In this document: positions 22,603-64,000 of the stretch, piece after piece
Position numbering within the stretch: position 1 is the stretch's first letter
Layout of the letters: each line of letters starts with the position of its first letter
Source of the DNA: an uncultured Myxococcales bacterium
GTDB taxonomy: Bacteria > Myxococcota_A > UBA9042 > DTJE01
Length of the DNA stretch: 64,000 nucleotides
NCBI GenBank assembly: GCA_903857665.1
Contig: CAIOFV010000159.1
Location: forward strand, 1,894 to 65,893
Direction: 5' to 3'
Translations under genes and position numbers: made by a program
The notes under the pieces: generated by a model
Seen by the model: the letters and a program-made list of their open reading frames with translations, nothing else
Databases searched by the model: none
What the model was told of the DNA's origin: nothing

Positions 22603-22708
22603 GCCTTCCCTCCGCGCGTCAGCAGGCACGTCCAGATGCGCGCCAACCGGATTCAGCGCCCACGCCGATGCCGGCGGGCTTCGGCGCGGAACGCCCGCCC
22701 CCCCCGCC

Positions 22709-26539: not shown

Positions 26540-27864
26540 CACAGGTTCACCTGGAACTGGAGGAAGAGCACGTCGTTCTTCAGTTCGGGGACCTTCCGTT
26601 CGCCCCGATGCTGGTAGTTCAGCTGCGCCTTCAGGTAGCCGTCCAGCAGGTACACGTTGATGCCGCCGGTGGCCAGCCACATGTCGCCCGCGTCGGACAC
26701 GTGGCGGTGGTCGTCGTACCACTCGTAGCGGGCCGCCAGTTCCAGCAGGCGCGGCACGACGAAGTAGCCGGCCTGGGCATAGAAGGCCAGGCGGTCCGTC
26801 GTGGACGGCAGCGACGTCGGCGCCACCGGCGCGTTCATCGGTTCGCGGCGATCCCAGATCACCTCGCCCATCAGGCTCAGTCCGCGCCACTTCAGGGCCA
26901 CGTCGGCGCTGGCCGCGTGGGTCCGGATCGACGCGTCCTCGCTGTAGTAGTAGTCGCCGCCGACCGCGAACCGGATCGGGGACTGCTCGTAGTCGGATTC
27001 GCCCGGGGCCATGCGGCCCAGCGGCGCGACCTGAAGGCGCGCGGCGTACAGGAACCCGCGATCCAGCGGCCCCAGGCCGTAGCGCCCCGGCTGGCCGTTG
27101 TAGATGCCCGTCGCGTACTCGAGGATGCCGCCCGCCAGGGTCCCCAGCGCCGCGAAGCCCAGCTGGGAGCCCGGCACGATGCGCTGGATCGACATCGGGC
27201 GCTCGATCATCTGCAGGCGCGACGAGGACGTGTAGGCGCCGCGCGAGAAGGGCAACGGGGCCGTGCCGAGCGCCAGGTTCAGGAAGCTGAACGGCTTGTA
27301 CAGCAGCGTGGCCGTGGACAGCGTGGTCCCGCCGGACTCCTGGTCCTTCACGTCGATGACCAGGCTGATGCCCAACTGGTCCCGGTACGAACCATAGAAG
27401 CCGACGCGGGCGCGCCGCAGCCGGAACCCCTCGGCGCTGGCCGGGTCGCCGTTGTCCACCAGCGCGTCCTTCTGGACGTAAGTCGCCACCTGGGCCTGGA
27501 CCAGCAGGTTCACCGCGAGGGAGGTCCGGTTGTCCCAGTCCAGACGGAACGCCTCGTGCCCCTTGTTCGGGTGCTCGTAGATTTCGCGGACTGCGTCTGA
27601 TTCGGGCTTCGGGGAAGCGGCCGGCGACGGCGCGGCGGCGGCCAATTGCGCAGGCTGCGCGACGGGGGCAGACTGTGCGACCGGGGCGGGAAGCGCGACC
27701 GGGGCGGGAAGCGCTGCGGCGGTCGCGGGCGACTCGGGCGCCGCCCGGGCCGGAGTCGGGATCGCGGACGGCGTGGCCTCGGCGGAAGGCGGAGGCACCT
27801 GGGCCAGCGCCCCGCCGGCGTACAGCAGGATGAGCCCCGCGATGAATGGCCGTGTCCCGAGCAT
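26539..27864 (-). CDS. outer-membrane beta-barrel porin, phosphate-selective porin O/P-like
   Basis: ATG at 27864 lies 5 nt after GGGGAGG. Signal peptide MLGTRPFIAGLILLYAGGALA-QV. Ala/Pro-rich linker. Amphipathic beta-strands including FRLRRARVGFYGSY and a C-terminal aromatic-rich strand (LFLQFQVNL). Family assignment is by motif resemblance only. Confidence 0.55.
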   Translation of the reverse strand: MLGTRPFIAGLILLYAGGALAQVPPPSAEATPSAIPTPARAAPESPATAAALPAPVALPAPVAQSAPVAQPAQLAAAAPSPAASPKPESDAVREIYEHPNKGHEAFRLDWDNRTSLAVNLLVQAQVATYVQKDALVDNGDPASAEGFRLRRARVGFYGSYRDQLGISLVIDVKDQESGGTTLSTATLLYKPFSFLNLALGTAPLPFSRGAYTSSSRLQMIERPMSIQRIVPGSQLGFAALGTLAGGILEYATGIYNGQPGRYGLGPLDRGFLYAARLQVAPLGRMAPGESDYEQSPIRFAVGGDYYYSEDASIRTHAASADVALKWRGLSLMGEVIWDRREPMNAPVAPTSLPSTTDRLAFYAQAGYFVVPRLLELAARYEWYDDHRHVSDAGDMWLATGGINVYLLDGYLKAQLNYQHRGERKVPELKNDVLFLQFQVNL

Positions 27865-28034
27865 GATGCCTCCCCGCCCTTGCGGCCGCTTTGCCGCCGC
27901 GATGATAGCCGATCGAAATGGGCGATTCCACGATTTCCGAAAACGTTTGCTAAACGATTTCACCGCCTGGGATGGGCTTGATCGGGTGGCGGGCATCTGC
28001 CACCATCACCCGGTCTGGCGAAGGTGCCGAAGCG

Positions 28035-50961: not shown

Positions 50962-51300
50962 CTTGTCCTCCGAGTGCGTCTTCGACAGGGTTCCGATCGC
51001 GGCGGCATTGTCCTACAGAACGGGTCCATGAAGAAAGCGGGATTCTGCACGGGCGGAAGTCACGGTCCGCCGCTCGCTCCGGACGAAGACGGCCAGGCAC
51101 ACGAGGCCACCCGGCACGAACGCGACGCCCGCGGTCCCCGGCGGCATCGACAGGCCGCCCCTCAGCGACGCCGGTCCCGCGGCATGGATGACGGCCCGTC
51201 CCGTCAGGGAATCCCCTACCCGCCTTCCGGTAGCATCCCCAATGCGCAGCGACTCGCGAAATGACACGATGCGCCATGCTTCGCCAGGGTCGGAGGATCC

Positions 51301-52650
51301 GTGATCCCGCAGGGAAGCCCCCCATTCGCCGACGTCGTGCTCTTCGACAAGGCCGCCGATCCTTCGCCACGAAGCCTCCTGGAGGCCGGCAGCCCGGAGG
51401 ACAGCGAAGCCCGCTACTCTGCGCTGGCCGAGACGCTCGAGCGGCGGGTGGCCGACCGCACCGCCGAACTGGAATTCCGGGCGACGCAGTTGCAGACCCT
51501 GGCCGCCGAGCTGACCAAGGCCGAACAACGCGAACGGGCCCGCCTGGCGAAGGAGCTTCACGACCACCTCCAGCAACTGCTCGTGGCGGCCAAGTTGAGG
51601 GTCGGGCTGCTTCCACGGATGACGGTCGATCCCGATCTGCCTACGGCCGCGCGGGAGATCGAAAGGCTGCTGGCGGAATCGATCCAGGCGGTCCGGGCGT
51701 TGACGGCCGACCTCAGCCCGCTGGTGCTCCATGACCGGGGCCTGGTCGCCGCGCTGGAATGGCTGGCCCGCTGGATGCGGGAAAAGCACCGGTTCGAAAT
51801 CGAGCTGGACCTGGACGAAGGCGCCGAGCCGGCCGACGACGCCGTTCGCATCCTGCTGTTTGCATCGGTTCGCGAACTGCTGCTGAACGCGGTGAAGCAT
51901 TCGGGCTTGGACCGGGCGCGGGTGACGCTGCATCGGGACGAACGGAACCAGGTCCGGCTGGTGGTCGAGGACCGCGGGGCGGGATTCGACCTGTCTTCGC
52001 TGCGCTCCGACGAACGGCTCACCGGGGGCTACGGCCTGTTCAGCATCCGCGAGCGACTGGACAACCTGGGCGGACGGATGAGCGTGGACAGCGCCCCCGG
52101 GCGCGGCGCCCGTATCACGCTGGTCGCACCGGTGTCCCTCCGGACGCAGGCGCCCGCCGACGGGAGCGCCACTGACCCGGCAACGACGACGCCACTTGCC
52201 GAACCGCGGAAGGACGCCCGGATCCGCCTGTTGCTGGCGGACGACCACGAGGCCCTCCGGCAGGGACTGGCCAGCCTGCTGGCCCTGGAGCCGGACTTCG
52301 ACGTGGCCGGCCAGGCGTCCGACGGGCGGGAAGCGGTGCAACTGGCGGCCAGCCTGCATCCCGACGTCGTGATCATGGATGTGACCATGCCGGTCATGGA
52401 CGGCGTCGAAGCCACGCGACGCATCACCCGTGATCTTCCGGGCGTACGAGTCATCGGCCTGTCCCTTCACGAGACCCTGGACATGGCCCGGGCCATGAAG
52501 GAGGCCGGAGCCACGGCCTACCTCAGCAAGGGCGGGTCCGCCGACCTCCTGATCGCGGCCATCCGGAACCCGGGCGATGCCGCGCAGACGGAACCGGGAG
52601 GTCGTCTTCCGACGGCCGTCGGCACGATCCAGAAGCCGCTGGCGTCCTGA
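51301..52650 (+). CDS. cytoplasmic hybrid histidine kinase (HisKA_3 + HATPase_c) fused to a receiver domain, no sensor or output domain
   Basis: GTG 51301 lies 4 nt after GGAGGA. H-box ELHDHLQQLL (NarX/DesK type). N-box LLLNAVKHS. DRGAGF. GGYGLFSIRERL. Then REC (IRLLLADDHE...DVVIMDVTMPVMDG...K). No TM helices. Confidence 0.75.
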   Translation: MIPQGSPPFADVVLFDKAADPSPRSLLEAGSPEDSEARYSALAETLERRVADRTAELEFRATQLQTLAAELTKAEQRERARLAKELHDHLQQLLVAAKLRVGLLPRMTVDPDLPTAAREIERLLAESIQAVRALTADLSPLVLHDRGLVAALEWLARWMREKHRFEIELDLDEGAEPADDAVRILLFASVRELLLNAVKHSGLDRARVTLHRDERNQVRLVVEDRGAGFDLSSLRSDERLTGGYGLFSIRERLDNLGGRMSVDSAPGRGARITLVAPVSLRTQAPADGSATDPATTTPLAEPRKDARIRLLLADDHEALRQGLASLLALEPDFDVAGQASDGREAVQLAASLHPDVVIMDVTMPVMDGVEATRRITRDLPGVRVIGLSLHETLDMARAMKEAGATAYLSKGGSADLLIAAIRNPGDAAQTEPGGRLPTAVGTIQKPLAS

Positions 52651-52731: not shown

Positions 52732-53073
52732 ATGGCCTCGATCCGAAGGAAGGAACAGGCGACGGCGCTGGCGTCCATCTTGTCGAACCCGTTGAGGCTC
52801 GCGATCGTGGACCGGCTCCGAGGTGGTCCGTCGATCGTGGGCGTTCTGGTCGATGACGTCGGCGAAAGCCAGGCCACGGTGTCCAAGCAGCTCGGCATCT
52901 TGAGGGACGCGGGCCTTCTGCAATGCCGGCCCGAGGGCCGCTGCCGCGAGTACGCGCTTGCCGATCCTCCGCTGGTCGATGCGGTGATGGAGGCCCTGTT
53001 CGCCCTGGCGGCGCAGGCGGCAGCCACGGGAGCGAAGTGCCGGTCGCGGCGCGCGGCCCGGGCCGCGGGGTAG
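52732..53073 (+). CDS. ArsR/SmtB-family winged-helix transcriptional regulator
   Basis: ATG lies after GGAGGAG. LASILSNPLRLAIVDRL...SQATVSKQLGILRDAGLL is the ArsR HTH. Cys pair CRPEGRC near the C-terminus; no ELCVCD metal site. Confidence 0.75.
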   Translation: MASIRRKEQATALASILSNPLRLAIVDRLRGGPSIVGVLVDDVGESQATVSKQLGILRDAGLLQCRPEGRCREYALADPPLVDAVMEALFALAAQAAATGAKCRSRRAARAAG

Positions 53074-53106: not shown

Positions 53107-53541
53107 ATGGACCGGGCATCGCGATTCTGCCGCCGGACCTTCCTGGGGGACGCCTGGCGCACCGTCGCATGGGGCGCCGCCGGGGTGGTCACGCTGGGGC
53201 TCGCGGGCATGCTTCGCCACGTGGTCGGACGGACGATCGACATTCCCCTCCCCGCGGACCTGCTGGAACGCGCGGGCCGCCAGGACGGGGTGCAGGTGGA
53301 CGGGATCTTCGTGCGGTGGAGCGGGGATACGCCGACGGCCTTCAGCCTGCGGTGCACGCACCTGGGCTGCCGGACCCGCCCCGACCCGGCGTCGGGCGGG
53401 TTCGCGTGCCCCTGCCATGGCAGTCGGTTCGACCGCGAGGGGGCGGTGATCCGGGGCCCGGCGGAAGCCCCCCTGGCCCGGGTGCCCGTGCGGCTCGAGG
53501 GGGCGCGGTGGATCGCCACGGTGGAGGCGGACCATGGGTGA
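53107..53541 (+). CDS. Tat-exported Rieske [2Fe-2S] protein
   Basis: Twin-arginine motif CRRTFLG plus a hydrophobic stretch. Rieske boxes CTHLGC and CPCHGS. Confidence 0.8.
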   Translation: MDRASRFCRRTFLGDAWRTVAWGAAGVVTLGLAGMLRHVVGRTIDIPLPADLLERAGRQDGVQVDGIFVRWSGDTPTAFSLRCTHLGCRTRPDPASGGFACPCHGSRFDREGAVIRGPAEAPLARVPVRLEGARWIATVEADHG

Positions 53542-54379
53542 ACGGCCTGCGGACGGCCATCGCTTCGGGGCGCTGTCGCTGGGGTTCCTGGCCGTCACGG
53601 TCCTGTCGGGCGTGGCCCTTGTGCCCATGTATCGGCCGGAGGACGCCCTGGCGTCCGTCGAGGCCATCCACGGCGCCATTCCAGGCGCGTGGCTGATCCG
53701 GGCGGTACACGCCTTCGCGGCGCTGGGATTCCTGCTGTCCACGGTCATCCACCTGGCGCAGGTAGTCGTGCGGGGCGACGTCGGGCGGGTGCCGGCCGGC
53801 ATCTGGTGGCGCAGCACGCTGCTGCTGCCGATCGCCGTCGCGGGCATGCTGACCGGCTTCCTGCTGCGCGGGGATGCGGAGGCGATCGCTGCGATGGCGG
53901 TGGGACGGGGCGTGCTGGGGTCGGTACCCTGGATCGGCGAGGGCCTCGCGACGCTGCTGCTGGGTCCGCCGGGGGCCGGGTTGGGCCCGGTGGCGCTTCA
54001 CCATGCGGGCACGCTGACGGTGCTGCCGTGGCTGCTGTCGTTCGAGCACGGTCGCCGCGCGTGGCCGGACCTCCGGTCGTTGGTGACGGCCCTGCTGGCT
54101 TCGATCGCGATCGCCGGCATCGTGCCCGTGGCGCCCGGGCCCGCCGAAGGGGCCGCCGGCCGCCTGCTGGGGCCGTGGTACCTGCTGGGCCTTCAGGGAA
54201 TGCTGCTGGACCTGCCCGTCGTCACCGCGTGGATCGTCCCCGCGGCCGCCGTGCTGGGCGTCGGGATGCTGGCGCACGTCCGGGGGCGGGCGCGGACCGC
54301 TGTGATGGCAGGCCTGGGGGGCGTCGCGGTGGCGTGGGTCGGCTGGACCGTGCGACTGCTGGTCGCGGGGGCGGGATGA
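53534..54379 (+). CDS. cytochrome b/b6-like membrane protein (short, ~7 TM)
   Basis: ATG overlaps the Rieske gene 3' end. His pairs in TM B (AVHAFAAL...VIHLAQ) and TM D (ALHHAG...) as in the cyt b N-terminal domain. Only 281 aa. Confidence 0.65.
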   Translation: MGERPADGHRFGALSLGFLAVTVLSGVALVPMYRPEDALASVEAIHGAIPGAWLIRAVHAFAALGFLLSTVIHLAQVVVRGDVGRVPAGIWWRSTLLLPIAVAGMLTGFLLRGDAEAIAAMAVGRGVLGSVPWIGEGLATLLLGPPGAGLGPVALHHAGTLTVLPWLLSFEHGRRAWPDLRSLVTALLASIAIAGIVPVAPGPAEGAAGRLLGPWYLLGLQGMLLDLPVVTAWIVPAAAVLGVGMLAHVRGRARTAVMAGLGGVAVAWVGWTVRLLVAGAG

Positions 54380-56241
54380 CGCGGTTCCCACGCACGCTGG
54401 CGGTGCTGATCGTCGCGGCCGCCGTGGGCCTCGGGACGGCCTTCGTCAGGGAGGCCCGGCGCGACGACGCCACCGGTCGCGGCCCGGACCGCGCGGGAGG
54501 GCGGACCGAGCGGTGCCTGACCTGCCATGACCGCCCCGACGAAAGCCCCGGCGGGGCCCACGCGGCCGAGGCGATCGGCTGCGAGGCGTGCCACCTGGGA
54601 AACCCCTGGGCCTTCGACAGGGAACGGGCCCACGCCGGGCTCGAACGGGAACCCGGCGCGCTGGACACCGTGGGACGCACCTGCGGCCGCGAGGGGTGCC
54701 ACGCCCGGGAGGCGGGTCGGGTCGCGACCTCGCTGATGGCCACGGGGCGCGGGTTGATCGCGGTGGATCGGTGGGTGCTGGGCGAAACACCCGGACCCGA
54801 CGGAACGGAGGGCTTCGCCGCGCTGCTGGCCACTCCCCGACCTACGCCGGCGCAGGATCACCTGCGGCGCAATTGCGCGGGATGCCACCTGCGGACCCGG
54901 GGGGACAACCGCGACGACGCGGTCCGGGGGATCGGATCGGGATGCGGCTCGTGCCACGCCACGCGCAAGGCCGCGCTGACGATGCGCGCCCACGTGCCGG
55001 TGGATGCGAAGGTGCCCGACGATCGCTGCCTGGGCTGCCACAGCCGCAGCGGCCGGATCAGCCTGTCGTACGCCGGGCTGGCGGAAACAAAGCCGGACCA
55101 GCCTGCGCTCGAGGGGAACGTCCGGTTGTTCGACGGACGACCTGCGACGCGGGCGGCGACAGACGTCCATCACGAAAAGGGCCTGGGTTGCACGGACTGC
55201 CACCTGCACACGGACGTGATGGGCGACGGGAACGCGCATGCCCACCAGGAGCAGCAGGTCGCGATCACCTGCGAGGCCTGCCACGGGCCCGTCCAGGAGC
55301 AGGACGAGCGGCCCTGGGCGACGGTCGATGACCCGATCACCCGGGACCTGCTGCGAATGCGGACGACGGAACGGACGCCCCTGGAACCGGCCCGCCTGGG
55401 ACGCCGGGGAGTCCCTGTGTGGAACGCGCGACCGATGGCCGCGCTGCCGGTCGAGGCGCGCCCCGCAGCCGGCGCGGACGGCCGGTCGGCGCCTTGGACA
55501 CTGCAAGGCAAGACCGACGGCCGGGAACACCCGGTGCGGCAGACCCCGGCCGACCCCGATCATCGCCTGGCCGGACACCGCCGCCTGTCCTGCCAGTCCT
55601 GCCACTCGGCCTGGGCTCCCTCCTGCACGACCTGCCACACCCGCTACGCTCCCGAAGGCCGCCAGTGGGACTTCGGTCGGGGCGCCGTTGCAGGCGGGGA
55701 ATGGGTCGAGGAGTCGGAGCGGTTCGGCTGGGGAGCGTCCGCCCTCGCCGTTCAGGGCGACCGGATCGTGCCGGCGATCCCGGGCATGGTGCTGACGGCC
55801 GACCTGGGCGCGTCCGAAGGCGCGCACGTTTCGCGACGCCTGTACGCGGCAATCGACCCGCACACGACCCGGAAGGAGTCGCGGTCGTGCGCGTCCTGCC
55901 ACGCCTCGTCGATCGCGCTGGGCCTGGGCACGGGGACGCTGGACCTGGGCATCGACGGGCCGCGCTTCGTGCCGGCCGAGCCGCGGTCCGACCAGCCCGC
56001 CGACGCCCGCGACGGGTGGGTGTCGCTGTTCCCGGAGGCGCCGGCCCCGGGCACCCGGACGGACGTCCGTTCCCTGGACGCCCCCGAGCAGCGCCGCACG
56101 CTGCGCGTGGCCCCGTGCCTGCCCTGCCACGCGAAATCGGCGGACGCGATCTACCGGGATTTCGATCGGTCGGTGAAGACGCTTCTGGACGGGGGAAGCC
56201 GGTGCACGTTCGAGGCCCCGCGATGGATCGGAGTTCGGTAG
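54376..56241 (+). CDS. multihaem c-type cytochrome (11 CxxCH + 1 CxxxxCH)
   Basis: ATG 54376 overlaps the cyt b stop (ATGA). N-terminal signal/anchor MTRFPRTLAVLIVAAAVGLGTAF. Haem motifs CLTCH, CEACH, CGREGCH, CAGCH, CGSCH, CLGCH, CTDCH, CEACH, CQSCH, CTTCH, CASCH, CLPCH. Confidence 0.85.
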   Translation: MTRFPRTLAVLIVAAAVGLGTAFVREARRDDATGRGPDRAGGRTERCLTCHDRPDESPGGAHAAEAIGCEACHLGNPWAFDRERAHAGLEREPGALDTVGRTCGREGCHAREAGRVATSLMATGRGLIAVDRWVLGETPGPDGTEGFAALLATPRPTPAQDHLRRNCAGCHLRTRGDNRDDAVRGIGSGCGSCHATRKAALTMRAHVPVDAKVPDDRCLGCHSRSGRISLSYAGLAETKPDQPALEGNVRLFDGRPATRAATDVHHEKGLGCTDCHLHTDVMGDGNAHAHQEQQVAITCEACHGPVQEQDERPWATVDDPITRDLLRMRTTERTPLEPARLGRRGVPVWNARPMAALPVEARPAAGADGRSAPWTLQGKTDGREHPVRQTPADPDHRLAGHRRLSCQSCHSAWAPSCTTCHTRYAPEGRQWDFGRGAVAGGEWVEESERFGWGASALAVQGDRIVPAIPGMVLTADLGASEGAHVSRRLYAAIDPHTTRKESRSCASCHASSIALGLGTGTLDLGIDGPRFVPAEPRSDQPADARDGWVSLFPEAPAPGTRTDVRSLDAPEQRRTLRVAPCLPCHAKSADAIYRDFDRSVKTLLDGGSRCTFEAPRWIGVR

Positions 56242-56249
56242 GGGAATCG

Positions 56250-57437
56250 CTAGCAGCCGCCGCCCTTCTTGGCGGGGGCGGGGGCGTCGTCGCGAACCGG
56301 CGCCACGACCGGGCGAACGGCGGGGGGCGGAGCCTGGACCTTCGCGCCGCTGAAGTATGCGACCAGGGCCGACCGCAGGCGCCAGTCGGCCAGCACCGCA
56401 GGGGATGCGTCCGCCGGCGCCGCGGCCACCGACAGGATGCCGGACTCGAACGCGGGGAAGCCGCCGGCCAGCACCGCGACGTCGCCCTTGAACCGGCGCG
56501 CGCCCTCGGGCGGGACCATGTCGCCCGCGCCGACCAGCACCAGCGTGCGCGACGACGGCAGGGACGCCAGGAACGCGCCGTCGGTGTCGTCCGCGGGCCG
56601 GCACAGCGAGCCCGGGATCCGCTTCACCGCGCACTCGGCCGCCGGGCGCAGGTCCGCGACCTGCACGGCGCCCGGGCGTTCGATCAGCGCCTTCGCCAGC
56701 GTCACCGCGTCCCACGAGGCCACGGTCCGTTCCGGAACCACCGGGACGGGCGCCGCGGGCAGCGCCATCGTCGCCAGGCCCAGCACTGCCGCCACGCCGA
56801 AACCCGCGAACACCTTGTTGCGCGTCGGGGCCGACGCCGCCGGCGGTTCCTCGCCGCGGCTCTTGCCCAGGGTGCGCTCGACCCACTCGGCGAACAGGAA
56901 CGCCCCCACCGCCATCGCGGCGACGCCCGCGGCGATCACCGACTGCGGCACGCCCAGTTGGTCCGGCAGCCGCACGACGCCCATCGCGCCGCTGGTGTAG
57001 AAATCCGCCACCAGCGGGTACGCCAGGCCGAAGACCAGCGAGCCCGCAATCACACCGACAATCGTCATCAGGCCATCCCACTTGCCCGACGCCATGGACA
57101 CCCAGGACGTCCCGGGGCAGTAGCCCGACACGATGAAGCCGACGCCCAGCAGCAGCCCGCCGAAGATCTGCGGCCCCAGGAACGTTTCGGGCACCGTCAG
57201 CTGCGACATGTCCAGCAGGCCCACGCCCGACAGCACCGTCATGCCCAGCAGGGCCGTCACGATGGCCGAAAACATCACCTTCAGCACGCGCATGTCGGAC
57301 CCGTAGAACTGCGCGGCCAGGATCGGGGCCTGCCCGAAGCCCGAGCCCTCCAGCGTGAAGCCGAAGGCGATCCCGATCACCGTGCCCAGCACCAGGCTCG
57401 CCTCGTGACCGAAGTGCACCGAGAGGGGGAACATCAT
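56250..57437 (-). CDS. YeeE/YedE-family (DUF395) half-transporter fused to a C-terminal rhodanese-like sulfurtransferase domain
   Basis: ATG 57437 lies 9 nt after GGAGG and overlaps the upstream stop (ATGATG). GYCPGTS motif of the second YeeE repeat. The C-terminal ~150 aa (VQVADLRPAAECAVKRIPGSLCRPADD...) is rhodanese-like with a candidate active Cys. Confidence 0.7.
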   Translation of the reverse strand: MMFPLSVHFGHEASLVLGTVIGIAFGFTLEGSGFGQAPILAAQFYGSDMRVLKVMFSAIVTALLGMTVLSGVGLLDMSQLTVPETFLGPQIFGGLLLGVGFIVSGYCPGTSWVSMASGKWDGLMTIVGVIAGSLVFGLAYPLVADFYTSGAMGVVRLPDQLGVPQSVIAAGVAAMAVGAFLFAEWVERTLGKSRGEEPPAASAPTRNKVFAGFGVAAVLGLATMALPAAPVPVVPERTVASWDAVTLAKALIERPGAVQVADLRPAAECAVKRIPGSLCRPADDTDGAFLASLPSSRTLVLVGAGDMVPPEGARRFKGDVAVLAGGFPAFESGILSVAAAPADASPAVLADWRLRSALVAYFSGAKVQAPPPAVRPVVAPVRDDAPAPAKKGGGC

Positions 57438-57952
57438 CGCCACTGCCTCCGCACGAGGGGCGCGAACAGGTAGCCGCCGGCGAACACGCACATCATGAAC
57501 ACCCACGAACCCAGCGACAGCGCCGAGCCGCCCGTCAGCGCCTGGCCCGACGTGCAGCCGCGGCCGAACCGCGCCGCCACGCCCATCAGCAATCCGCCGA
57601 CGAACGCCAGGGCCAGCCGCGTCCACGGGGACACCGGCCGCTTGCCCATCGAGATGCCGCGGCGCATGCGCCCGGCCGAGTACGCGCCGAGGGCGCCGCC
57701 CAGCACGACACCCAGCACCTCGAACACCAGCCAGTCGTCCAGCACGTTCTTGCCGGGGCCGACGTACTCGGCGAAGTACGCGTTGGACTCGACGGCCTGC
57801 GGCGCGATCATGTCCGCGGCGCCGATCCCCAGGCGGTTCGCCGCGCCCGACGCGCCCAGACCGTTGCCCACGACCAGGAACGACCCCAGCAGCACCAGGC
57901 CGAGGACGACCCCGGCCACGTAGGGGTTCCAGAGCGGACGGGGAGACTGCAT
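57434..57952 (-). CDS. YeeE/YedE-family (DUF395) half-transporter (first repeat)
   Basis: ATG 57952 lies 7 nt after GGAGGTG. Conserved GRGCTSG motif. 172 aa, ~4 TM. Confidence 0.75.
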   Translation of the reverse strand: MQSPRPLWNPYVAGVVLGLVLLGSFLVVGNGLGASGAANRLGIGAADMIAPQAVESNAYFAEYVGPGKNVLDDWLVFEVLGVVLGGALGAYSAGRMRRGISMGKRPVSPWTRLALAFVGGLLMGVAARFGRGCTSGQALTGGSALSLGSWVFMMCVFAGGYLFAPLVRRQWR

Positions 57953-57962
57953 CACGCACCTC

Positions 57963-58937
57963 CTACGGGAATTCCCGGAAACTGGACGCCTGTCCCGACA
58001 GCATCAGCACGACCCGCAACGACAGCCCGCCGATCAGCACCAGCACCGGGGTCAGCATCGCCAGCGGCAGGCGCCGCCGGATCTCGACGGCCTCCAGGGC
58101 CAGCGGCACGCCCAGGCCCGTCACCACCACCAGCGACCAGAACGGCGCGGCCCACGGTCCCGAGGTCAGGTGCCAGAACGCGTGCTGCGACGTCCGGTCC
58201 CCGGTGGCGAACCCGACCAGCAGCACCCCGATCAGCACCAGCTCCGCGACGATCGCCCCGACGTCCCAGCGCACCACCGCGTGGCGCTCGTGCTCGTCCA
58301 GCCCCAGCAGCAGCAGCAGCGCCGCGCCGGTGGACATCCCCGACGTCAGGAACAGCGGGCCCAGGATCGCCGAGTTCCACTGCGGCCGCGCCGCCATGGC
58401 ACCCAGCAGGATGCCGGTGTAGATGCCCAGCCCGGCGCCCACCACCACGCCCGCCCACAGCAGCGGCCGCCGCAGGGCATCCGCACGCCCCAGCAGGCAC
58501 ATCAAGAGCGAGGTGAGGCGAACCCGACCCGCCGACGCGAGCAGCCGCGCCCTCTCACCCTCGGTCAGCCCGCCCAGGCCCAGCAGGATCGCCACCGGGT
58601 ACACCAGCAGCAGGATCCACGACCCCCACGACATCGGCGAGGTCGCCTCGAAGGCCAGGTAGAACCGGTACACGTGCAGCTTGAACGACAGGTCCAGGAA
58701 CAGCGCGCACATGCCCAGCGACAGCAGCGCGGCCGATAGCCACGGCGCCAGCCGCAGCGCCATCGACCGCGCCTTCGCGCCCGACAGCAGTTCCATCAGC
58801 GCCGGCAGGATCAGCACGCCGGCCGCCAGCCCGCCCAGGAACAGGTACACGGGGATTTCCCAGCCCCAGACCTGCAGCGACGGGTCGATCAGGGCGTTGT
58901 GCCGTCCGTGGACGACCTCCAGCATCGCGTCGTTCAT
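57963..58937 (-). CDS. psrC: NrfD/PsrC-family membrane anchor of a molybdopterin oxidoreductase
   Basis: 324 aa, 8-9 TM. N-terminus LEVVHGRHNALIDPSLQVWGWEIPVYLFLGGLAAG is typical of PsrC/NrfD. G7 tract as RBS. Confidence 0.8.
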   Translation of the reverse strand: MNDAMLEVVHGRHNALIDPSLQVWGWEIPVYLFLGGLAAGVLILPALMELLSGAKARSMALRLAPWLSAALLSLGMCALFLDLSFKLHVYRFYLAFEATSPMSWGSWILLLVYPVAILLGLGGLTEGERARLLASAGRVRLTSLLMCLLGRADALRRPLLWAGVVVGAGLGIYTGILLGAMAARPQWNSAILGPLFLTSGMSTGAALLLLLGLDEHERHAVVRWDVGAIVAELVLIGVLLVGFATGDRTSQHAFWHLTSGPWAAPFWSLVVVTGLGVPLALEAVEIRRRLPLAMLTPVLVLIGGLSLRVVLMLSGQASSFREFP

Positions 58938-58947
58938 CGCCCCCCCA

Positions 58948-59577
58948 TCACGTCAGGAAGAACACGTTCGGCTCGCACCCGGTTTCGGGATGCAGCACCT
59001 TCGACTTCCGCCCGCGCAGCAGCCGCGACACCTCCGACTCGGGGTCGTTCAGGTTGCCGAAGTGCAGGCAGAACGTCGGGCAGACCTCCACGCACGCGGG
59101 CTGCTTGCCGGCCTGGACCCGGTGCAGGCAGAACGTGCACTTGTCCACGTACCCGTCCGGGTGCGGGTAGCGCGAATCGTACGGGCAAGACGCGATGCAG
59201 GCCTTGCAGCCCGTGCACTTGTCGTGCGTGACCAGCACCGCGCCGCCGTCCTCGACGTGGCTGGCGCCGGTGGGGCACGCCGCGACGCACGGAGGCTTGG
59301 CGCAGTGGTTGCAGCGTTCGGACCGGTTTTCCGCCGACAGGTGCGGGAACCAGCCGCGGACCTCCTCGACCAGCCAGTCCCGGGAGTACCCGTCGGGCAC
59401 CGCGTTTTCGCCCTTGCAGGCCAGCACGCAGGCCTTGCAGGCGACGCACAGCCGGGTGTCCACGACCATCGCGTACCGTTTCTCCCTCCCGAGCGCGGAG
59501 GCGTAGGCGACGGGTTTGAGCAGGAAACTCTCGCCGGAGCGGGAGCCGCCTCGGGACGGTTCAATCTGTCCACTCAT
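58948..59577 (-). CDS. psrB: 4Fe-4S ferredoxin-type electron-transfer subunit (PsrB/DmsB-like)
   Basis: Four Cys clusters (CVACKAC, CNHCAKPPCVAAC, CTGCKACIASCP, CTFC). The ATG at 59577 overlaps the psrA stop, but a ~33-aa N-terminal extension before KRYAMVVD makes the exact start uncertain. Confidence 0.8.
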   Translation of the reverse strand: MSGQIEPSRGGSRSGESFLLKPVAYASALGREKRYAMVVDTRLCVACKACVLACKGENAVPDGYSRDWLVEEVRGWFPHLSAENRSERCNHCAKPPCVAACPTGASHVEDGGAVLVTHDKCTGCKACIASCPYDSRYPHPDGYVDKCTFCLHRVQAGKQPACVEVCPTFCLHFGNLNDPESEVSRLLRGRKSKVLHPETGCEPNVFFLT

Positions 59578-61781
59578 GCCCTCTCCACCCGCACGAAGTT
59601 CACGCTCATGCCGGTCCCCCCCATGATCGGGTCGGTCTTGATGCGCGTCACCAGGCGCGAATCGTCGGCACCACGGTTCCGTGCGTACCGCAGCCCCTTC
59701 GCGTCATGCCCGAAGCCGTGGACCATGAACACGCAGTCGGTCCGGATGCGCTGGGTCGCCTTCAGCCGGATCGGCTGGGACCGCACTCCGTCCTGGTTTA
59801 CCGCGACGACCGTCTCGCCATCCTTCAGGCCCAACTCCGCCGCCATCTGCGCGTTCAGCCACAGTTCGTTCTGGTTGAAGACCTCGGACAGGAACCGGTT
59901 GTTGGTGGTCCGCCCGAACGTGTGGGTCGGCGCGCGGCCGAACAGCAGCCGGAAGTGCCCCGTCGGCGGCTCCTCGGGCGGCGTGAACTGCGGGATCGGG
60001 TCGAACCCCGCATCCTTCAGCCTCTGCGAAAACAGTTCGATCTTCCCGGACGGCGTCGCGAACTTCGGCACCAGGCCGTCCTCGATCGTGGTGGGTCGGG
60101 GCTTCCCGATCACCACGCCGGTGGTCCGCAGCACGTCGCAGTCGTACCCCGCCGCGTGCACCCGCTGCATCGCGTATTCCATGCTGTCCTTCCACGGGAA
60201 GTAGTCGGACAGGCCCAGGCGCAGCGCGATTTCGCGGGCGATCCACCATCCGGGCTTGCTGTCGTACATCGGGGGAACCACTTCCTGCCGCACCGCCGCG
60301 AACGGCACCTTCCAGGGCGGGTTGTCGATGTCGTCGCACCGCTCCAGGTACGTCGCCTCGGGCAGCACGACGTCGGCCCAGCCCACGATTTCCGCGGGCA
60401 GCACGTCCACCACCGCGATGAAGTCCAGCGCCTGGATCGCCTCCTTGGTCCGTTCCGGCTGCGGCAGCGCCATCAGCAGGTTCGTGCCGTAGACCAGCCA
60501 CCCCTTGATGTCGTAGGAGGCCGTGCCCGGGATCGACGCCATGCACAGGCCGCTGGCCAGCACCTCGTCCGCCAGCGGGTACCCCTGGTCCTTCGGCCGG
60601 TCCGGCGGCGCCTTCGGGTGGCCCTGGTAGGCGGTGTACGGGTACGCCGGCAGCGCCATCTGCGACGGCACGAAGATCCCGCCGCGGCGCGCGTAGGAAC
60701 CCAGCAGCGCGTTGAGGATCGCGACCGCCCGGCTGCGCTGGGTGTCGTCGCCGTACCAGACCACGTGGCGCCCCGGGTGCACCAGCGACGCGGGCCGCCC
60801 GCCCGCCATCACCCGCGCCGTCTCCACGATCGTTTCCGGCGCGATGGTCGTCTGCGTGTACGCCCACTCGGGCGTCTTGTCCCGGACGTGCTCCTTCAAT
60901 TGGTCGAAACCGATGGCGTACTGGTCGATGTAGTCCTTGTCGTACAGCCCCTCGGCGATGATCACGTGCATCCACGCCAGCAGCAGCGCCAGGTCGGTGC
61001 CCGGCTTGATGGGCAGCCAGTATTTCGCCTTGCCCGCAGCGGTCGAGAAGCGCGGGTCCACCACGATCAGCGTCGCGCCGCGGTCGATGGCGGTGGCGAA
61101 CTCCTGCACCTGGGTGTTGTGCATGTTCTCGCCCAGGTGCGACCCGATCAGCGTGATCACGCGCGAGTTTTCCAGGTCCAGCACCTCCGGCGAACCCAGC
61201 GTCGAGCCGTACGTCAACTGGAAGCCGACCTCCCGGGGCCCGCGGCACTGGGCGTACGAGGGCGCCGCGATGTTCTTGGACCCGTAGGCCTTCAGCAGGT
61301 GCTTGAACCACGAGCCGCCGTACCCGTGCGAATACAGGGCCAGCGACTCGGGGCCGTACCGGTCCTTCAGGTTCAGCAGGCGCTGCGCGGTGAAGTCCAG
61401 CGCCTCCTCCCACGACACCTCCTCGAACACCTGCTCGCCGCGCTTCTCGCGACGCAGCATCGGGCGCTTGAGGCGATCCGGGTCGTACAGCAGGCCGGTG
61501 CCGCCGGTGCCGCGCGGGCACAGCCGGCCGCGGGACAGCGGGTGCGCGGGGTTGCCGGTGATCTTGGTCACGCGGCCGTCCTTCACGTGGGCCAGCACGC
61601 CGCACTTCCAGAAGCACAGTTCGCAGAACGTCGGCACCACGCGGTCGCCGTCGGTGCCCGGGTTCGCGACCGGGTCGTCGTCCAGGCCCCACCACCGCGT
61701 GGTGAGCCCCGACCCGACTGCCGCGGCGCCCGCCGTCGCGGCCCCGATCTTGATGAACTGCCTGCGCGTCACGCCGGACAT
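59574..61781 (-). CDS. psrA: Tat-exported molybdopterin (bis-MGD) oxidoreductase catalytic subunit, polysulfide/thiosulfate/tetrathionate-reductase (PsrA/PhsA)-like
   Basis: ATG 61781 lies 6 nt after AAGGAGG. Tat motif TRRQFIKIGAATAGAAAVGSG. N-terminal FeS motif CELCFWKCG...C. MopB superfamily. The 868-aa track ORF includes upstream non-coding codons. Confidence 0.85.
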   Translation of the reverse strand: MSGVTRRQFIKIGAATAGAAAVGSGLTTRWWGLDDDPVANPGTDGDRVVPTFCELCFWKCGVLAHVKDGRVTKITGNPAHPLSRGRLCPRGTGGTGLLYDPDRLKRPMLRREKRGEQVFEEVSWEEALDFTAQRLLNLKDRYGPESLALYSHGYGGSWFKHLLKAYGSKNIAAPSYAQCRGPREVGFQLTYGSTLGSPEVLDLENSRVITLIGSHLGENMHNTQVQEFATAIDRGATLIVVDPRFSTAAGKAKYWLPIKPGTDLALLLAWMHVIIAEGLYDKDYIDQYAIGFDQLKEHVRDKTPEWAYTQTTIAPETIVETARVMAGGRPASLVHPGRHVVWYGDDTQRSRAVAILNALLGSYARRGGIFVPSQMALPAYPYTAYQGHPKAPPDRPKDQGYPLADEVLASGLCMASIPGTASYDIKGWLVYGTNLLMALPQPERTKEAIQALDFIAVVDVLPAEIVGWADVVLPEATYLERCDDIDNPPWKVPFAAVRQEVVPPMYDSKPGWWIAREIALRLGLSDYFPWKDSMEYAMQRVHAAGYDCDVLRTTGVVIGKPRPTTIEDGLVPKFATPSGKIELFSQRLKDAGFDPIPQFTPPEEPPTGHFRLLFGRAPTHTFGRTTNNRFLSEVFNQNELWLNAQMAAELGLKDGETVVAVNQDGVRSQPIRLKATQRIRTDCVFMVHGFGHDAKGLRYARNRGADDSRLVTRIKTDPIMGGTGMSVNFVRVERA

Positions 61782-61798
61782 GAACGCCTCCTTGCCGG

Positions 61799-62122
61799 TC
61801 AGGCCCCCGTGACGAGGGCACAGGTCGATATGCAGTGCAGCAACTGCGTCGTCTGGGGCACCGCCAGCGAGTAGAACCGGAACCCCTGGGCGCGCCGCAC
61901 CGACACCAGGCCGTTCATCCGCAGGATCCCCAACTGCTGGGACAGCGCCGCCTGGGGCAGGTCCAGTTCCCGACCCAGGTCCCCGACCGACCGCTCGCCG
62001 TGGCAGCACAGGTGGGCGACGATCCTCAGCCTGGCGGGATGGCCCAGCGCCTTCAGCAGCCCGGCCGCCTTCTCCACCTTGCGTTCGTCGATCATCACGT
62101 GCCTGATCTTCGCGATGTCCAT
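61799..62122 (-). CDS. ArsR-family regulator with Cys pairs (BigR/SqrR-like candidate sulfane-sulfur sensor)
   Basis: ATG 62122 is directly preceded by a G9 tract. HTH LLKALGHPARLRIVAHLCCHGERSVGDLGRELDLPQAALSQQLGILRMNGLV. Cys pairs at HLCCHG and C-terminal HCISTC. It is the first gene of the psr/yeeE operon. Confidence 0.7.
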   Translation of the reverse strand: MDIAKIRHVMIDERKVEKAAGLLKALGHPARLRIVAHLCCHGERSVGDLGRELDLPQAALSQQLGILRMNGLVSVRRAQGFRFYSLAVPQTTQLLHCISTCALVTGA

Positions 62123-62165
62123 TGCCCCCCCCCGAACCGGCCGTTCCCGGCCGTCGGGTTGGACC

Positions 62166-62177
62166 ATATCCAGATAT
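62166..62177 (+). promoter_or_regulatory. AT-rich inverted repeat ATATCcaGATAT in the arsR/tauE divergent intergenic region (candidate operator)
   Basis: The only AT-rich palindrome in a GC-rich 130-bp divergent promoter region. HlyU/BigR-type ArsR regulators bind AT-rich palindromes. Confidence 0.3.
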
Positions 62178-62253
62178 CATGCTTTCTGCAAGTCTATTTC
62201 GAGGGCCAAAAATGGCTGGATCCCTCGCGCCCCTTTCCGCCTAGAATCCACCC

Positions 62254-63090
62254 ATGAGCCCGCTGGATTTCACGCTGGTCACGTTCGGCGTCGCGATGGT
62301 CGCCGGCTTCTTCGGGTCGCTGCTGGGCCTGGGCGGCGGGATGATCGTGACGCCGGTCCTGACCCTGGCCCTTGGGGTCGATATCCGCTACGCCATCGGC
62401 GCGTCGCTGGTGTCGGTGATCGCCACGTCCAGCGGCGCGGCGGCCGCGTATGTCCGCGAGCACAAGACCAACATGCGCGTGGCCATGTTCCTGGAGGTCG
62501 GCACGACGCTGGGGGCGATCAGCGGCGCCTGGCTTTCCACCCGCATCGACGCTCAATGGCTGTACCTGATCTTCGGCCTGGCGCTGGCGGGATCGGCCAT
62601 CGCGATGTTCCGCAAACGCCACGCCGCGGGCGGACCGGTCCCCGCGGATCCGACGGCCGACCGCCTGCGCCTGCACGGCGAATTCTACGACGAGTCGCTG
62701 CACCGCACGGTGGCCTACCGCGTGTCCGGCAGCCGGCCCGCGCTGGGACTGATGTACGTGGCGGGCGTGCTGAGCGGCCTGCTGGGCATCGGGTCGGGCG
62801 CGCTGAAGGTCCCCGCGATGGACCTCGCGATGCGTCTGCCGCTGAAGGTGTCGTCCGCGACCAGCAACTTCATGATCGGCGTCACCGCGGCGGCCAGCGC
62901 CTGCGTGTATTTCATGCGCGGCGACATCGTCCCGTTCATCGCGGGCCCGGTGGCCGCCGGTGTGCTGGTGGGCGCCACGATGGGCTCGCGCGTGATGGGG
63001 CGGCTGGACAACCGGCTGCTGCGCACCGTGTTCGTGATCGTGCTGATGATCGTTTCGGCGCAGATGATCCTGAAGGGGGCCCGGGGATGA
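62254..63090 (+). CDS. tauE: TSUP-family sulfite/organosulfonate exporter (TauE/SafE, DUF81)
   Basis: 278 aa, 8 TM with two GxxGxGGG-type repeats (SLLGLGGGMIV; GLLGIGSGAL). Confidence 0.8.
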   Translation: MSPLDFTLVTFGVAMVAGFFGSLLGLGGGMIVTPVLTLALGVDIRYAIGASLVSVIATSSGAAAAYVREHKTNMRVAMFLEVGTTLGAISGAWLSTRIDAQWLYLIFGLALAGSAIAMFRKRHAAGGPVPADPTADRLRLHGEFYDESLHRTVAYRVSGSRPALGLMYVAGVLSGLLGIGSGALKVPAMDLAMRLPLKVSSATSNFMIGVTAAASACVYFMRGDIVPFIAGPVAAGVLVGATMGSRVMGRLDNRLLRTVFVIVLMIVSAQMILKGARG

Positions 63091-63536
63091 GCGACGACCT
63101 TCAGACACTCCGCGTGGACGCGCCGGTCATCGACGCCCCGGTCATCGATCCCCGGGTGCGACGCCTGGAACTCGTGGTCAGCTGGGTGCTGCGCCTGGGC
63201 GTGGCGGCCAGCCTGACCCTCGTGGTCGCCGGCATGCTGATGACGTTCGCCCAGGCGCCCGCTCCCGGGTCGCCGGGTTCGGAGGCCGTCAACGCGAACG
63301 GCACGATCCTGACGCCCCCGCCCTCCCTGTCGAACCTGCCTCGCGACCTCGTCGCCGCCAGCGGGCCCGCCTGGGTGGCCCTGGGACTCATCATCCTGAT
63401 CCTGACGCCCGTGATGCGCGTGGCGGTTTCGGCGGTCGGGTTCGCGTTCCAGAAGGATCGCGTGTTCGTCGGGATCACCCTGGCCGTGCTGGCCGTGCTG
63501 ATCGCGTCGTTCCTGATGGGCCTGGCGGGCGGCTGA
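63087..63536 (+). CDS. DUF1634-like small membrane protein
   Basis: ATGA overlap with the tauE stop. 149 aa, 3 TM. Strong GC3 bias. Confidence 0.55.
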   Translation: MSDDLQTLRVDAPVIDAPVIDPRVRRLELVVSWVLRLGVAASLTLVVAGMLMTFAQAPAPGSPGSEAVNANGTILTPPPSLSNLPRDLVAASGPAWVALGLIILILTPVMRVAVSAVGFAFQKDRVFVGITLAVLAVLIASFLMGLAGG

Positions 63537-63579: not shown

Positions 63580-64000
63580 TCAGTGCGTGCGGCACACCAA
63601 CCCGGTGAACTCCGTAGGAACGTGCAGGTTCGTCAGGGTCCACAGGGCCGTACCTGTCCGCACGTCGAAGACCGTGATGCGCTTCTCGGGCCACCAGGCG
63701 CTGACGACCAGCAGATCGTCGTCGGTGACGGACAGACCCTGCACCCACGTGTCGTAGTCCTGCAGGTGGATCAGGGCGCCCTCGGTCCCATCGGGCATCC
63801 CGTACTGCTGGATCGTGTCGGTCGAATGCCAGGCCGCGAACACGGTGTCGCCCCGGACGTTCACCCGGGACGCGTTCACCGCGAAGTCCAGGGGCAGCGC
63901 GTTGCCGGCCACCGCGTCCTCGAAGCTGGCGTAGGCGCGCACGTGGAACCCACTGTCCTGAACCAGTACCACGAGGCCGCCGTTCCAGGACGCCACGCCG
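63580..64000 (-). CDS. hypothetical protein, C-terminal part (gene continues beyond window end)
   Basis: ORF is open to the window edge. GC3 bias. WxxV/FDxxTGxxW-like beta-propeller-type motifs. No start is visible. Confidence 0.4.
   Translation of the reverse strand, partial: GVASWNGGLVVLVQDSGFHVRAYASFEDAVAGNALPLDFAVNASRVNVRGDTVFAAWHSTDTIQQYGMPDGTEGALIHLQDYDTWVQGLSVTDDDLLVVSAWWPEKRITVFDVRTGTALWTLTNLHVPTEFTGLVCRTH

Follow-up and report, generated by a model that had tools for sequence, protein, structure and literature searches.

The stretch of DNA described here, referred to as the window, comprises 64,000 nucleotides (G+C ~70%) from an uncultured Myxococcales bacterium (contig CAIOFV010000159.1). 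It carries six genes on the minus strand that encode an ArsR-family regulator, the three subunits of a reductase with a molybdenum-bis(pyranopterin guanine dinucleotide) (Mo-bisPGD) cofactor (PsrABC) and two halves of a YeeE/YedE-type transporter, the second of which is fused to a rhodanese-like domain and ends in a cysteine (Table 1). Genes were called by listing open reading frames (ORFs), inspecting their start codons and translating them. The spacers from arsR to the fusion gene are 17, -4, 10, 10 and -4 nt, and because of this close spacing the six genes are considered one operon. The original prediction had described these six genes together with a divergent tauE-DUF1634 pair; all eight were found at the coordinates given for them, and every domain that it named was matched by Pfam or NCBIfam. 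The Pfam matches are HTH_5 in ArsR (E = 3e-9), Molybdopterin (9e-44), Molybdop_Fe4S4 (3e-15), Molydop_binding (2e-11) and TAT_signal (4e-5) in PsrA, Fer4_11 in PsrB (1e-23), NrfD in PsrC (1e-38), Sulf_transp in the products of the two transporter genes (3e-21 and 1e-15), TauE (6e-54) and DUF1634 (1e-24). The possibility that the YeeE genes, or any of the others, are pseudogenes was rejected, as the ORFs are uninterrupted and the residues important for function do not vary. In 59-79 related loci, the cysteines that bind the cofactors of PsrA and PsrB are invariant, and so are those of the channel.

Table 1. Features of the psr operon, the divergent gene pair and the neighbouring cytochrome cluster (window positions; TM, transmembrane helix; RBS, ribosome-binding site).
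Feature	Position	Strand	Remarks
arsR, ArsR/SmtB-family regulator, 107 aa	61799-62122	-	alternative start 62167
psrA, twin-arginine translocation (Tat)-exported Mo-bisPGD catalytic subunit, 735 aa	59574-61781	-	RBS AAGGAGG in front
psrB, four-cluster [4Fe-4S] electron-transfer subunit	58948-59577	-	
psrC, NrfD-type haem-less quinol-binding membrane anchor	57963-58937	-	
yedE-half, YeeE C-half subunit, PmpA-like, 172 aa, 4 TM, N-in/C-in	57434-57952	-	
yeeE-half::rhodanese-like fusion gene, 395 aa	56250-57437	-	stop codon TAG at 56250-56252
Fusion, membrane part: PmpB-like YeeE N-half, H7-like helix and one extra TM	56760-57437	-	
Fusion, rhodanese-like domain without catalytic Cys, predicted periplasmic	56349-56720	-	
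Fusion, Ala/Pro-rich linker leading to KKGGGC-COOH, proposed sulfur-carrier arm	56253-56348	-	sequence read directly
tauE, TauE/SafE-family anion exporter, divergent from arsR	62254-63090	+	accessory
DUF1634 membrane protein gene, overlaps tauE stop codon	63087-63536	+	accessory
Second ArsR-family regulator (ArsR2), head of cytochrome cluster	52732-53073	+	Pfam HTH_20 and HTH_5; HTH_metalloreg 62.7 bits
Rieske [2Fe-2S] protein with twin-arginine leader	53107-53541	+	Pfam Rieske 8e-11; CxH...CxxH motif
Cytochrome b, b6/ExtP-like	53534-54379	+	Pfam Cytochrome_B 3e-13; ExtP best at 62 bits
Membrane-anchored cytochrome c, ExtM-like, 621 aa, 12 haem motifs	54376-56241	+	11 CxxCH and 1 Cx4CH

When one genome of each GTDB species was scanned with a sequence pattern, relatives of the fusion protein were present in 366 stretches, the best 80 of which were inspected (numbered with L below). 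These best 80 are all metagenome-assembled genomes (MAGs) of Myxococcota or "Deltaproteobacteria", Acidobacteriota (Holophagales and Thermoanaerobaculia), Planctomycetota and Eisenbacteria, and the carriers are environmental genomes from lakes, sediments, groundwater and bioreactors. The nearest relative is a lake Myxococcales MAG with 84% identity in the fusion protein and 94% in PsrA. In their source annotations, the relatives of the fusion appear as "YeeE/YedE family protein", "rhodanese-related sulfurtransferase" or "hypothetical protein". Gene order was compared by tblastn with the window proteins. Of the 57 loci whose upstream sequence exceeds 4.6 kb, 56 have psrA adjacent to the fusion gene. 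The genes are arranged as psrA-psrB-psrC-yedE-fusion in 57 loci and as psrA-psrB-yedE-fusion-psrC in 13, where yedE and the fusion gene interrupt the psr operon. The genes psrABC, the yedE-half and the fusion gene are thus obligately linked in a five-gene module, in which the transporter pair is tied to psrABC and not to tauE. The loci with the variant order (L051, L063, L065, L067, L068, L069, L072-L074 and L077-L080) come from a subgroup of the Myxococcota, one of whose members is an Anaeromyxobacteraceae MAG. In 31 Acidobacteriota loci, the next gene after the fusion gene, in the same orientation, encodes an outer-membrane channel of the FadL/Toluene_X family (for example L081 at 11280-12533, as well as L007, L008, L021 and L023). 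Distant copies (25-28% identity) occur in four Myxococcota loci (L065, L069, L074 and L079), and the window has no FadL-type channel gene. This channel may be an uptake route for hydrophobic sulfur.

By its sequence, the catalytic subunit is a Tat-exported PsrA of the Psr/Phs type and a Mo-bisPGD enzyme. Its affiliation was judged by the scores of NCBIfam hidden Markov models (HMMs) and by phmmer scores to PDB sequences. The twin-arginine leader reads TRRQFIK, and the protein aligns over its full length with PsrA of Thermus thermophilus (2VPW_A) at 764.6 bits and ~51% identity, while the second-best structure scores 212 bits and the ArrA structure 6CZ7 158 bits. Among the NCBIfam models, PhsA is on top at 477.8 bits, followed at a distance by ArrA (160 bits, cut-off 1600) and TtrA (50 bits, cut-off 1750). 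A Tat-exported Mo-bisMGD (bis(molybdopterin guanine dinucleotide)) reductase of the polysulfide, thiosulfate or tetrathionate type had been proposed; the polysulfide/thiosulfate part of this assignment stands, whereas the tetrathionate part does not agree with the TtrA score. An affiliation with ArrA or selenate reductases, which had been named as grounds to abandon the assignment, was not found in the HMM and PDB scores, and these scores exclude ArrA, TtrA and selenate reductase as identities of the catalytic subunit. In the phmmer alignment, C173, H145 and R332 of Thermus PsrA are all identical in the window protein; we take C173 to be the molybdenum ligand and the other two to be its neighbours. 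The corresponding C179 is invariant in 60 of 60 loci, as are the FS0 cysteines C53, C56, C60 and C88 in the 59-68 related loci compared. PsrB matches 2VPW_B at 213 bits, and its 16 cluster cysteines are all invariant in 66-68 loci. PsrC, with 8-9 predicted hydrophobic segments, matches 2VPW_C weakly (20 bits, E = 0.0026). The operon is therefore predicted to encode a quinol-dependent reductase of the polysulfide/thiosulfate type.

The two genes that follow psrC encode the C-half and the N-half of a YeeE/YedE transporter, each with its own essential cysteine, which agrees with the split transporter of the original prediction. The 172-aa subunit covers positions 177-309 of the Sulf_transp profile (Pfam) and aligns to residues 239-327 of Spirochaeta thermophila YeeE, with C134 falling on C293. 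This C134, located in a GCTSGQ motif, is kept in all 78 of the 78 loci compared. In the fusion, the first 190 residues match the N-half of the same profile, and C107 in the motif GYCPGT is the sole invariant membrane cysteine of the fusion; its equivalence to C91 follows the assignment made for PmpB (PMC11582611). The equivalents of the transport-essential C91 and C293 are both kept, one in each half, which matches the description of PmpA/PmpB as split channel halves with one essential cysteine each (PMC11582611). The full-length YeeE/TsuA type, of ~330-350 aa with nine TM and three cysteines, does not apply to these products of 172 and 395 aa. TsuA models (NCBIfam) score 26-37 bits against cut-offs of 400-645, the loop-A cysteine (the equivalent of YeeE C22) is absent from the fusion, and the fusion consists of six predicted helices with ~170 extra residues.

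These extra residues contain a domain with the rhodanese alpha/beta fold, for which a sulfurtransferase function had been proposed. The fold is present, but the catalytic cysteine is missing: the window protein has Gly at this position (loop VLVGAGD), and 119 of 120 close homologues lack a cysteine in the active-site loop, leaving a single homologue that has one. Among 111 representatives with at most 50% mutual identity, the position is occupied by Ser, Gly, Ala or Asp, and by Cys in three. Canonical sulfurtransferase activity of the domain is ruled out by the lack of this residue. The conserved thiol of the C-terminal region is a different one, which the original prediction does not mention and which lies in the tail of the protein. 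The tail consists of a linker followed by [KR][KR]-G-G-G-C and the stop codon. The linkers of the 120 close homologues have a median of 26 aa and 45% Ala+Pro, and 99% of these proteins have the terminal Cys; in the AlphaFold2 model, the linker is disordered with a predicted local distance difference test (pLDDT) score below 50. The wider fusion family was defined by 465 representatives at E <= 1e-30, and the endings were examined in the 114 full-length ones. Gly-Cys followed by 0-3 residues ends 100 of these 114, as GC (52), GCG (23), GCS (8) or GCGG (5), among others. Ala/Pro-rich linkers are the classic flexible tethers of lipoyl swinging domains. The cysteine in the C-terminal GGCGG of SoxY is an established periplasmic carrier of sulfur (PMC6067878). 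By analogy, the tail of the fusion looks like the SoxY carrier arm and is a candidate for a built-in sulfur-carrying arm.

Within the wider family, representatives P0159, P0203 and P0204 keep a canonical rhodanese loop (e.g. VLYCRTQRR) together with a GGC tail. These few distant members suggest an ancestor with an active rhodanese, whose catalytic cysteine was later lost in most lineages while the one in the tail was kept. Representatives P0256 and P0259 (660-690 aa) have a long extra C-terminal region without the GGC ending. Also, a second, divergent pair of yedE-half and fusion genes (33-34% identity) is located upstream of the same psr operon in L026 (2336-4049) and L076 (1576-3152). The second fusion copy of L026 (33% identity) lacks the rhodanese Cys and ends in KKVQGGC, and ahead of this pair lies an ORF (1647-2321) that looks by sequence like a membrane b-type cytochrome.

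The N-terminus of YeeE is outside the cell membrane, and its helix H7 returns the chain to the cytoplasm before the C-half begins (PMC7449682). The fusion holds the N-half and an H7-like fifth helix, after which a sixth helix follows at residues 203-225 (pLDDT at least 90 in the AlphaFold2 model). The family mean of Lys and Arg residues (K+R) is highest, at 4.4, in the loop after the H7-like helix, and is 0.1-0.2 in the N-tail and in the loop between TM2 and TM3. The rhodanese-like domain has a net charge of -4.6. From the YeeE topology, the basic loop after the H7-like helix and the sixth TM, the C-terminal domain is placed outside, on the PsrA side; the rhodanese-like domain and its tail are thus predicted to be in the periplasm beside PsrA.

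A second gene cluster, outside the coordinates of the original prediction, converges on the psr operon and ends 8 nt away from it. It encodes a Rieske protein, a cytochrome b and a 12-haem cytochrome c behind a second ArsR-family regulator. The top NCBIfam matches of the Rieske protein are the Rieske subunits of b6f and bc1 complexes. The cytochrome c matches ExtM at 202 bits over residues 41-594 of 621 (cut-off 800) and the cytochrome b matches ExtP at 62 bits (cut-off 290). As judged from these matches, the set is a distant relative of Geobacter ExtM/ExtO/ExtP with the same architecture. Of the 60 loci with sufficient flanking sequence, 20 have homologues of the cytochrome set beside the module, in varying orientation. 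In several Acidobacteriota loci, they lie directly upstream of psrA on the same strand, and a same-strand arrangement of cytochrome cluster and psr genes is found in L043, L057, L058, L061 and L062. In Geobacter, ExtKL, which is encoded just upstream of extM, has recently been shown to be MccSep, a periplasmic polysulfide reductase that is essential for the respiration of elemental sulfur (S0) and uses selenite less efficiently (PMC13510729, 2026). Since two unrelated polysulfide reductases have the same kind of bc-type neighbour, a context of sulfur respiration is favoured. The gene immediately before the ArsR2-cytochrome cluster (51265-52650, plus strand) encodes a hybrid histidine kinase/response regulator (HisKA_3, HATPase_c and Response_reg), which may also take part in regulating the region.

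The regulator at the head of the psr operon had been compared with BigR, and the whole locus with the BigR operon for H2S detoxification. In NCBIfam, the protein matches HTH_metalloreg at 74.6 bits and BigR at 63 bits, against a BigR cut-off of 155. BigR/SqrR sensors have a conserved pair of cysteines, the first in the N-terminal helical region and the second close to the C-terminus. In the window family, the C-terminal CxxxC (C97 and C101) is conserved in 22 of 22 loci, whereas the adjacent N-terminal cysteines C39 and C40 are not conserved and are kept in only 4-8 of 22. Neither a blh/PDO gene nor a DUF442 gene is present in the operon or among the window ORFs scanned with Pfam. The BigR parallel is therefore not upheld. 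As a speculation, the regulator may sense sulfur species through its CxxxC pair. ArsR is not core to the module, as 21 of 57 loci have arsR in front of psrA. Directly upstream of psrA, where Myxococcota have ArsR, the Holophagales loci carry a sigma-54 two-component system, which indicates that regulation differs between the phyla. In L081 (2801-5321), as in 25 further loci, a sigma-54-dependent response regulator is encoded near the module, often with a sensor kinase. No convincing inverted repeat emerged when the intergenic regions were scanned. By eye, a perfect 5-2-5 palindrome (ATATC-CA-GATAT) is visible at 62167-62178 in the relatively AT-rich spacer between arsR and tauE, and it is a candidate operator. 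The TauE protein on the opposite strand is present as described earlier; its membership in the conserved system is not supported, and because the tauE-DUF1634 pair is syntenic only in L001, the closest relative, it is placed outside the module.

Among the ~30 window ORFs scanned with Pfam, which do not include several ORFs upstream of ~18 kb, no sox, sqr, pdo or dsr gene was found. The region 18171-42914 contains ordinary chromosomal genes, without further sulfur-metabolism genes among the ORFs scanned. These include a GFO/IDH/MocA oxidoreductase, two large ORFs with PHP-domain matches (21046-27949), an SSF transporter with GH38 and GH31 glycosidases, and genes for DAHP synthase, chorismate mutase/prephenate dehydratase and threonine dehydratase. 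Close to the window edge, at 63580-63996 on the minus strand, a 138-aa ORF has a coding-like G+C content at third codon positions (0.92) and no Pfam match.

The gene content, cofactor motifs, folds, conservation and synteny of the module are best explained by respiratory reduction of sulfur or polysulfide by PsrABC with a tethered carrier arm and a YeeE-type channel, a reading to which we give about an even chance. In this proposal, a periplasm-facing, menaquinol-linked PsrABC would work with its own substrate-handling device, a heterodimeric YeeE-type channel made up of the PmpA-like C-half and the PmpB-like N-half. The N-half would continue through two more helices into the periplasm, where the rhodanese-like domain is followed by a linker of ~26-30 residues and Lys-Lys-Gly-Gly-Gly-Cys. 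The terminal thiolate could attack polysulfide or elemental sulfur and hold the sulfane sulfur covalently, in the manner of the SoxY GGCGG arm and of Wolinella Sud. The arm would present this sulfur to the molybdenum site of PsrA, where electrons delivered from quinol via PsrC and PsrB would reduce it to sulfide. It might also reach the periplasmic mouth of the channel, from where the C293- and C91-equivalent cysteines would relay sulfur species inward. The rhodanese-like domain would then be a docking or anion-binding module and not a catalyst, and the Ext-like Rieske/cytochrome b/12-haem complex, where present, would form an extra quinol-oxidising branch of the same sulfur respiration. A secreted rhodanese protein is encoded in the psr operon of Desulfurivibrio (PMC12142623), which is a precedent for a periplasmic rhodanese that serves Psr. 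Sulfur is preferred over other substrates because the Ext-like neighbour has its Geobacter counterpart beside MccSep and because a FadL-type gene follows the module in the 31 Acidobacteriota loci. The wider idea is that a SoxY-convergent, membrane-tethered arm physically couples a molybdoenzyme to a YeeE-type channel, with a covalent, previously unrecognised sulfur relay from uptake to PsrA and to import across the inner membrane, and that uncultured Myxococcota, Acidobacteriota and related phyla use it as a dedicated entry module for S0 respiration or disproportionation. This wider idea is regarded as possible but doubtful.

Several points weigh against respiratory sulfur reduction by this module. 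The substrate within the Psr/Phs/Srr clade is not readable from sequence (PMC13047784), and the 477.8 bits of PsrA against the PhsA equivalog NF012032 are under the cut-off of 694. All 80 inspected loci are from uncultured MAGs. A second, Ext-like quinol oxidase alongside the quinol site of PsrC itself is unexplained, and contact between the arm and PsrA is purely hypothetical. Homology and the positive-inside rule are the basis for placing the C-terminal domain in the periplasm, and the segment just after TM6 carries ~2 K+R. This last point, together with the lack of a separate yeeD or tusA gene in the operon, would fit a cytoplasmic C-terminal domain of the YeeD/TusA kind, in which the terminal Cys takes up thiosulfate or sulfane sulfur inside the cell and the link with Psr is merely metabolic. 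YeeE needs a Cys-bearing cytoplasmic YeeD, and natural and engineered YeeE-YeeD fusions exist (PDB 8j4c; PMC11582611, PMC13047784). However, the chain is already inside after the H7-equivalent helix according to the YeeE topology and the K/R-rich loop, the confidently modelled sixth helix recrosses the membrane, the domain is net acidic, and its fold is that of a rhodanese and not of TusA, so that a cytoplasmic tail is very unlikely. The energetics also pose a difficulty, as quinol-driven reduction of polysulfide is endergonic with menaquinone (PMC8076601), and the enzyme might therefore run the opposite way. In such an oxidative or disproportionating flow, the Psr-like enzyme would oxidise sulfide, with or without sulfite, and reduce menaquinone, or the module would serve as the way into sulfur disproportionation; in both cases the arm would feed the channel with sulfane sulfur or thiosulfate, to be oxidised or assimilated in the cytoplasm, and the Rieske complex would re-oxidise the quinol. 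This is the favoured direction of the reaction (PMC8076601), published models of disproportionation and sulfur oxidation pair a periplasmic Psr with import by YeeE/YedE (PMC12142623, PMC13047784, PMC11582611), and a quinol-oxidising bc-type complex and a quinone-reducing enzyme in one operon, as in the five same-strand loci, would make a complete chain. On the other hand, TusA/YeeD, DsrE, sHdr and Dsr acceptors were not found in the scanned window ORFs or in two annotated related loci, the closest characterised relatives (from Thermus, Wolinella, Shewanella and Salmonella) have been described as reductases, the Ext homologues of Geobacter belong to a cluster for reductive sulfur respiration, and the Ext-like cluster is present in only about one third of the loci. 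An oxidative flow is therefore considered rather unlikely.

Handling of selenium instead of sulfur has also to be weighed against the reduction of sulfur by PsrABC. PsrABC would then be an SrrABC-like selenite reductase, respiratory or detoxifying, with selenium bound by the rhodanese-like domain and the terminal Cys and transported by the YedE-type channel. SrrA of Bacillus selenitireducens falls inside the Psr/Phs clade, and the rhodanese proteins in its operon have served as a marker for organisms that reduce selenite (PMC8528874, PMC12481199); in addition, relatives of YedE have been predicted or shown to be selenium transporters (PMC9312934, PMC11582611). The Geobacter ext cluster has since been tied to S0 respiration, with selenite as the less efficient substrate of MccSep (PMC13510729). 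The top NCBIfam match of the YedE-half is YedE/FdhT and the neighbouring cytochromes match ExtM/ExtP models named "selenite/tellurite reduction operon", but the scores are far under the cut-offs (37.6 against 350 for YedE/FdhT and 202 against 800 for ExtM). The operon has neither a TorD-like SrrD chaperone nor a stand-alone rhodanese (SrrE/SrrF), in a comparison with SrrABCDEF by operon content and not by SrrA sequence, and the rhodanese-like domain lacks the Cys that would bind selenium. Relatives of the module are found in 366 stretches, the closest of which carry lake-derived isolate names, and sulfur greatly exceeds selenium in lake waters, which counts against this explanation. Selenium handling is judged to be unlikely. 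In the view put forward originally, the locus is a BigR-type island for the detoxification of H2S or sulfite (ArsR, YeeE and TauE) to which a respiratory reductase has been added. It is consistent with BigR as the best model of the regulator after the generic ArsR/SmtB one, with tauE being divergent from arsR, and with the co-occurrence of PmpAB/YedE1E2 pairs with PDO, rhodanese and TauE in other bacteria (PMC10812762). The regulator, however, stays below the BigR cut-off and lacks a conserved N-terminal Cys, no blh/PDO/DUF442 gene accompanies it in the operon or the scanned ORFs, TauE-DUF1634 is syntenic only in L001, the Acidobacteriota versions use a sigma-54 two-component system in place of ArsR, and the transporter pair goes with psrABC and not with tauE. 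A detoxification island is highly improbable on these grounds.

How insoluble or unstable sulfur species reach the active sites of polysulfide reductases, and how they cross the inner membrane, is poorly resolved, and the recent work on MccSep lists sulfur transfer components as an open point (PMC13510729). The module, conserved across hundreds of environmental genomes, offers a concrete candidate, in which an enzyme and a channel are combined with a putative carrier arm that bears one conserved thiol. If the arm carries sulfur, the principle known from SoxY would have arisen independently a second time. Many proteins annotated as "YeeE/YedE family" or "rhodanese-related sulfurtransferase" would then be reassigned. 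Knowledge of sulfur metabolism in Myxococcota and Acidobacteriota comes largely from MAGs, and the module would also serve as a genomic marker of sulfur respiration in these groups. Full-text literature searches found no description of a psrABC-YeeE-half-rhodanese-GGC module.

Multiple known systems resemble parts of the module. PsrABC of Thermus (PDB 2VPW-2VPZ) has the same Tat-exported Mo-bisPGD/[4Fe-4S] PsrA, four-cluster PsrB and haem-less NrfD-type PsrC, whereas PsrC of the window is very divergent (20 bits) and the enzyme is invariably co-encoded with a split YeeE channel that bears a tailed domain; the Thermus gene neighbourhood lies outside this comparison. The Geobacter sulfurreducens ext cluster shares the Rieske protein, the cytochrome b and the multihaem cytochrome c of ~600 aa beside a periplasmic polysulfide reductase. 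It differs in that the terminal reductase here is a molybdoenzyme and not a pentahaem selenoprotein, the scores are far under the equivalog cut-offs, and homologues of ExtH, ExtI, ExtN, ExtQ and ExtS were not identified here. Sud of Wolinella succinogenes and RS06465 of Desulfurivibrio are soluble proteins or lipoproteins with the canonical active-site Cys, while the domain of the module lacks that Cys and is fused to a transporter subunit. With PmpA/PmpB (YedE1/YedE2), the module shares adjacent genes, with the C-half first, and four core TM and one cysteine in each half (the C293 and C91 equivalents). The N-half of the module, however, has 395 aa compared with ~130, adding the H7-like helix, a TM, the rhodanese-like domain and the Cys-terminated tail, and its partner is psrABC and not PDO, BigR or PigP-regulated genes. 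Its tail resembles SoxY in having a Gly-flanked Cys at the extreme C-terminus of a flexible peptide, for which a periplasmic location is established in SoxY and predicted here. A SoxY/SoxZ fold is lacking, with no Pfam match in the operon, and in its place a membrane-anchored rhodanese-like domain is found with a much longer Ala/Pro linker. The partner is a molybdoenzyme reductase and not SoxAX, SoxB or SoxCD, and the resemblance of the tail to the SoxY arm is probably convergent. Each component of the module belongs to a known family, and it is the fixed combination, with its extended N-half, lost rhodanese Cys and conserved Gly-Gly-Cys end, that was absent from the papers returned by the full-text searches.

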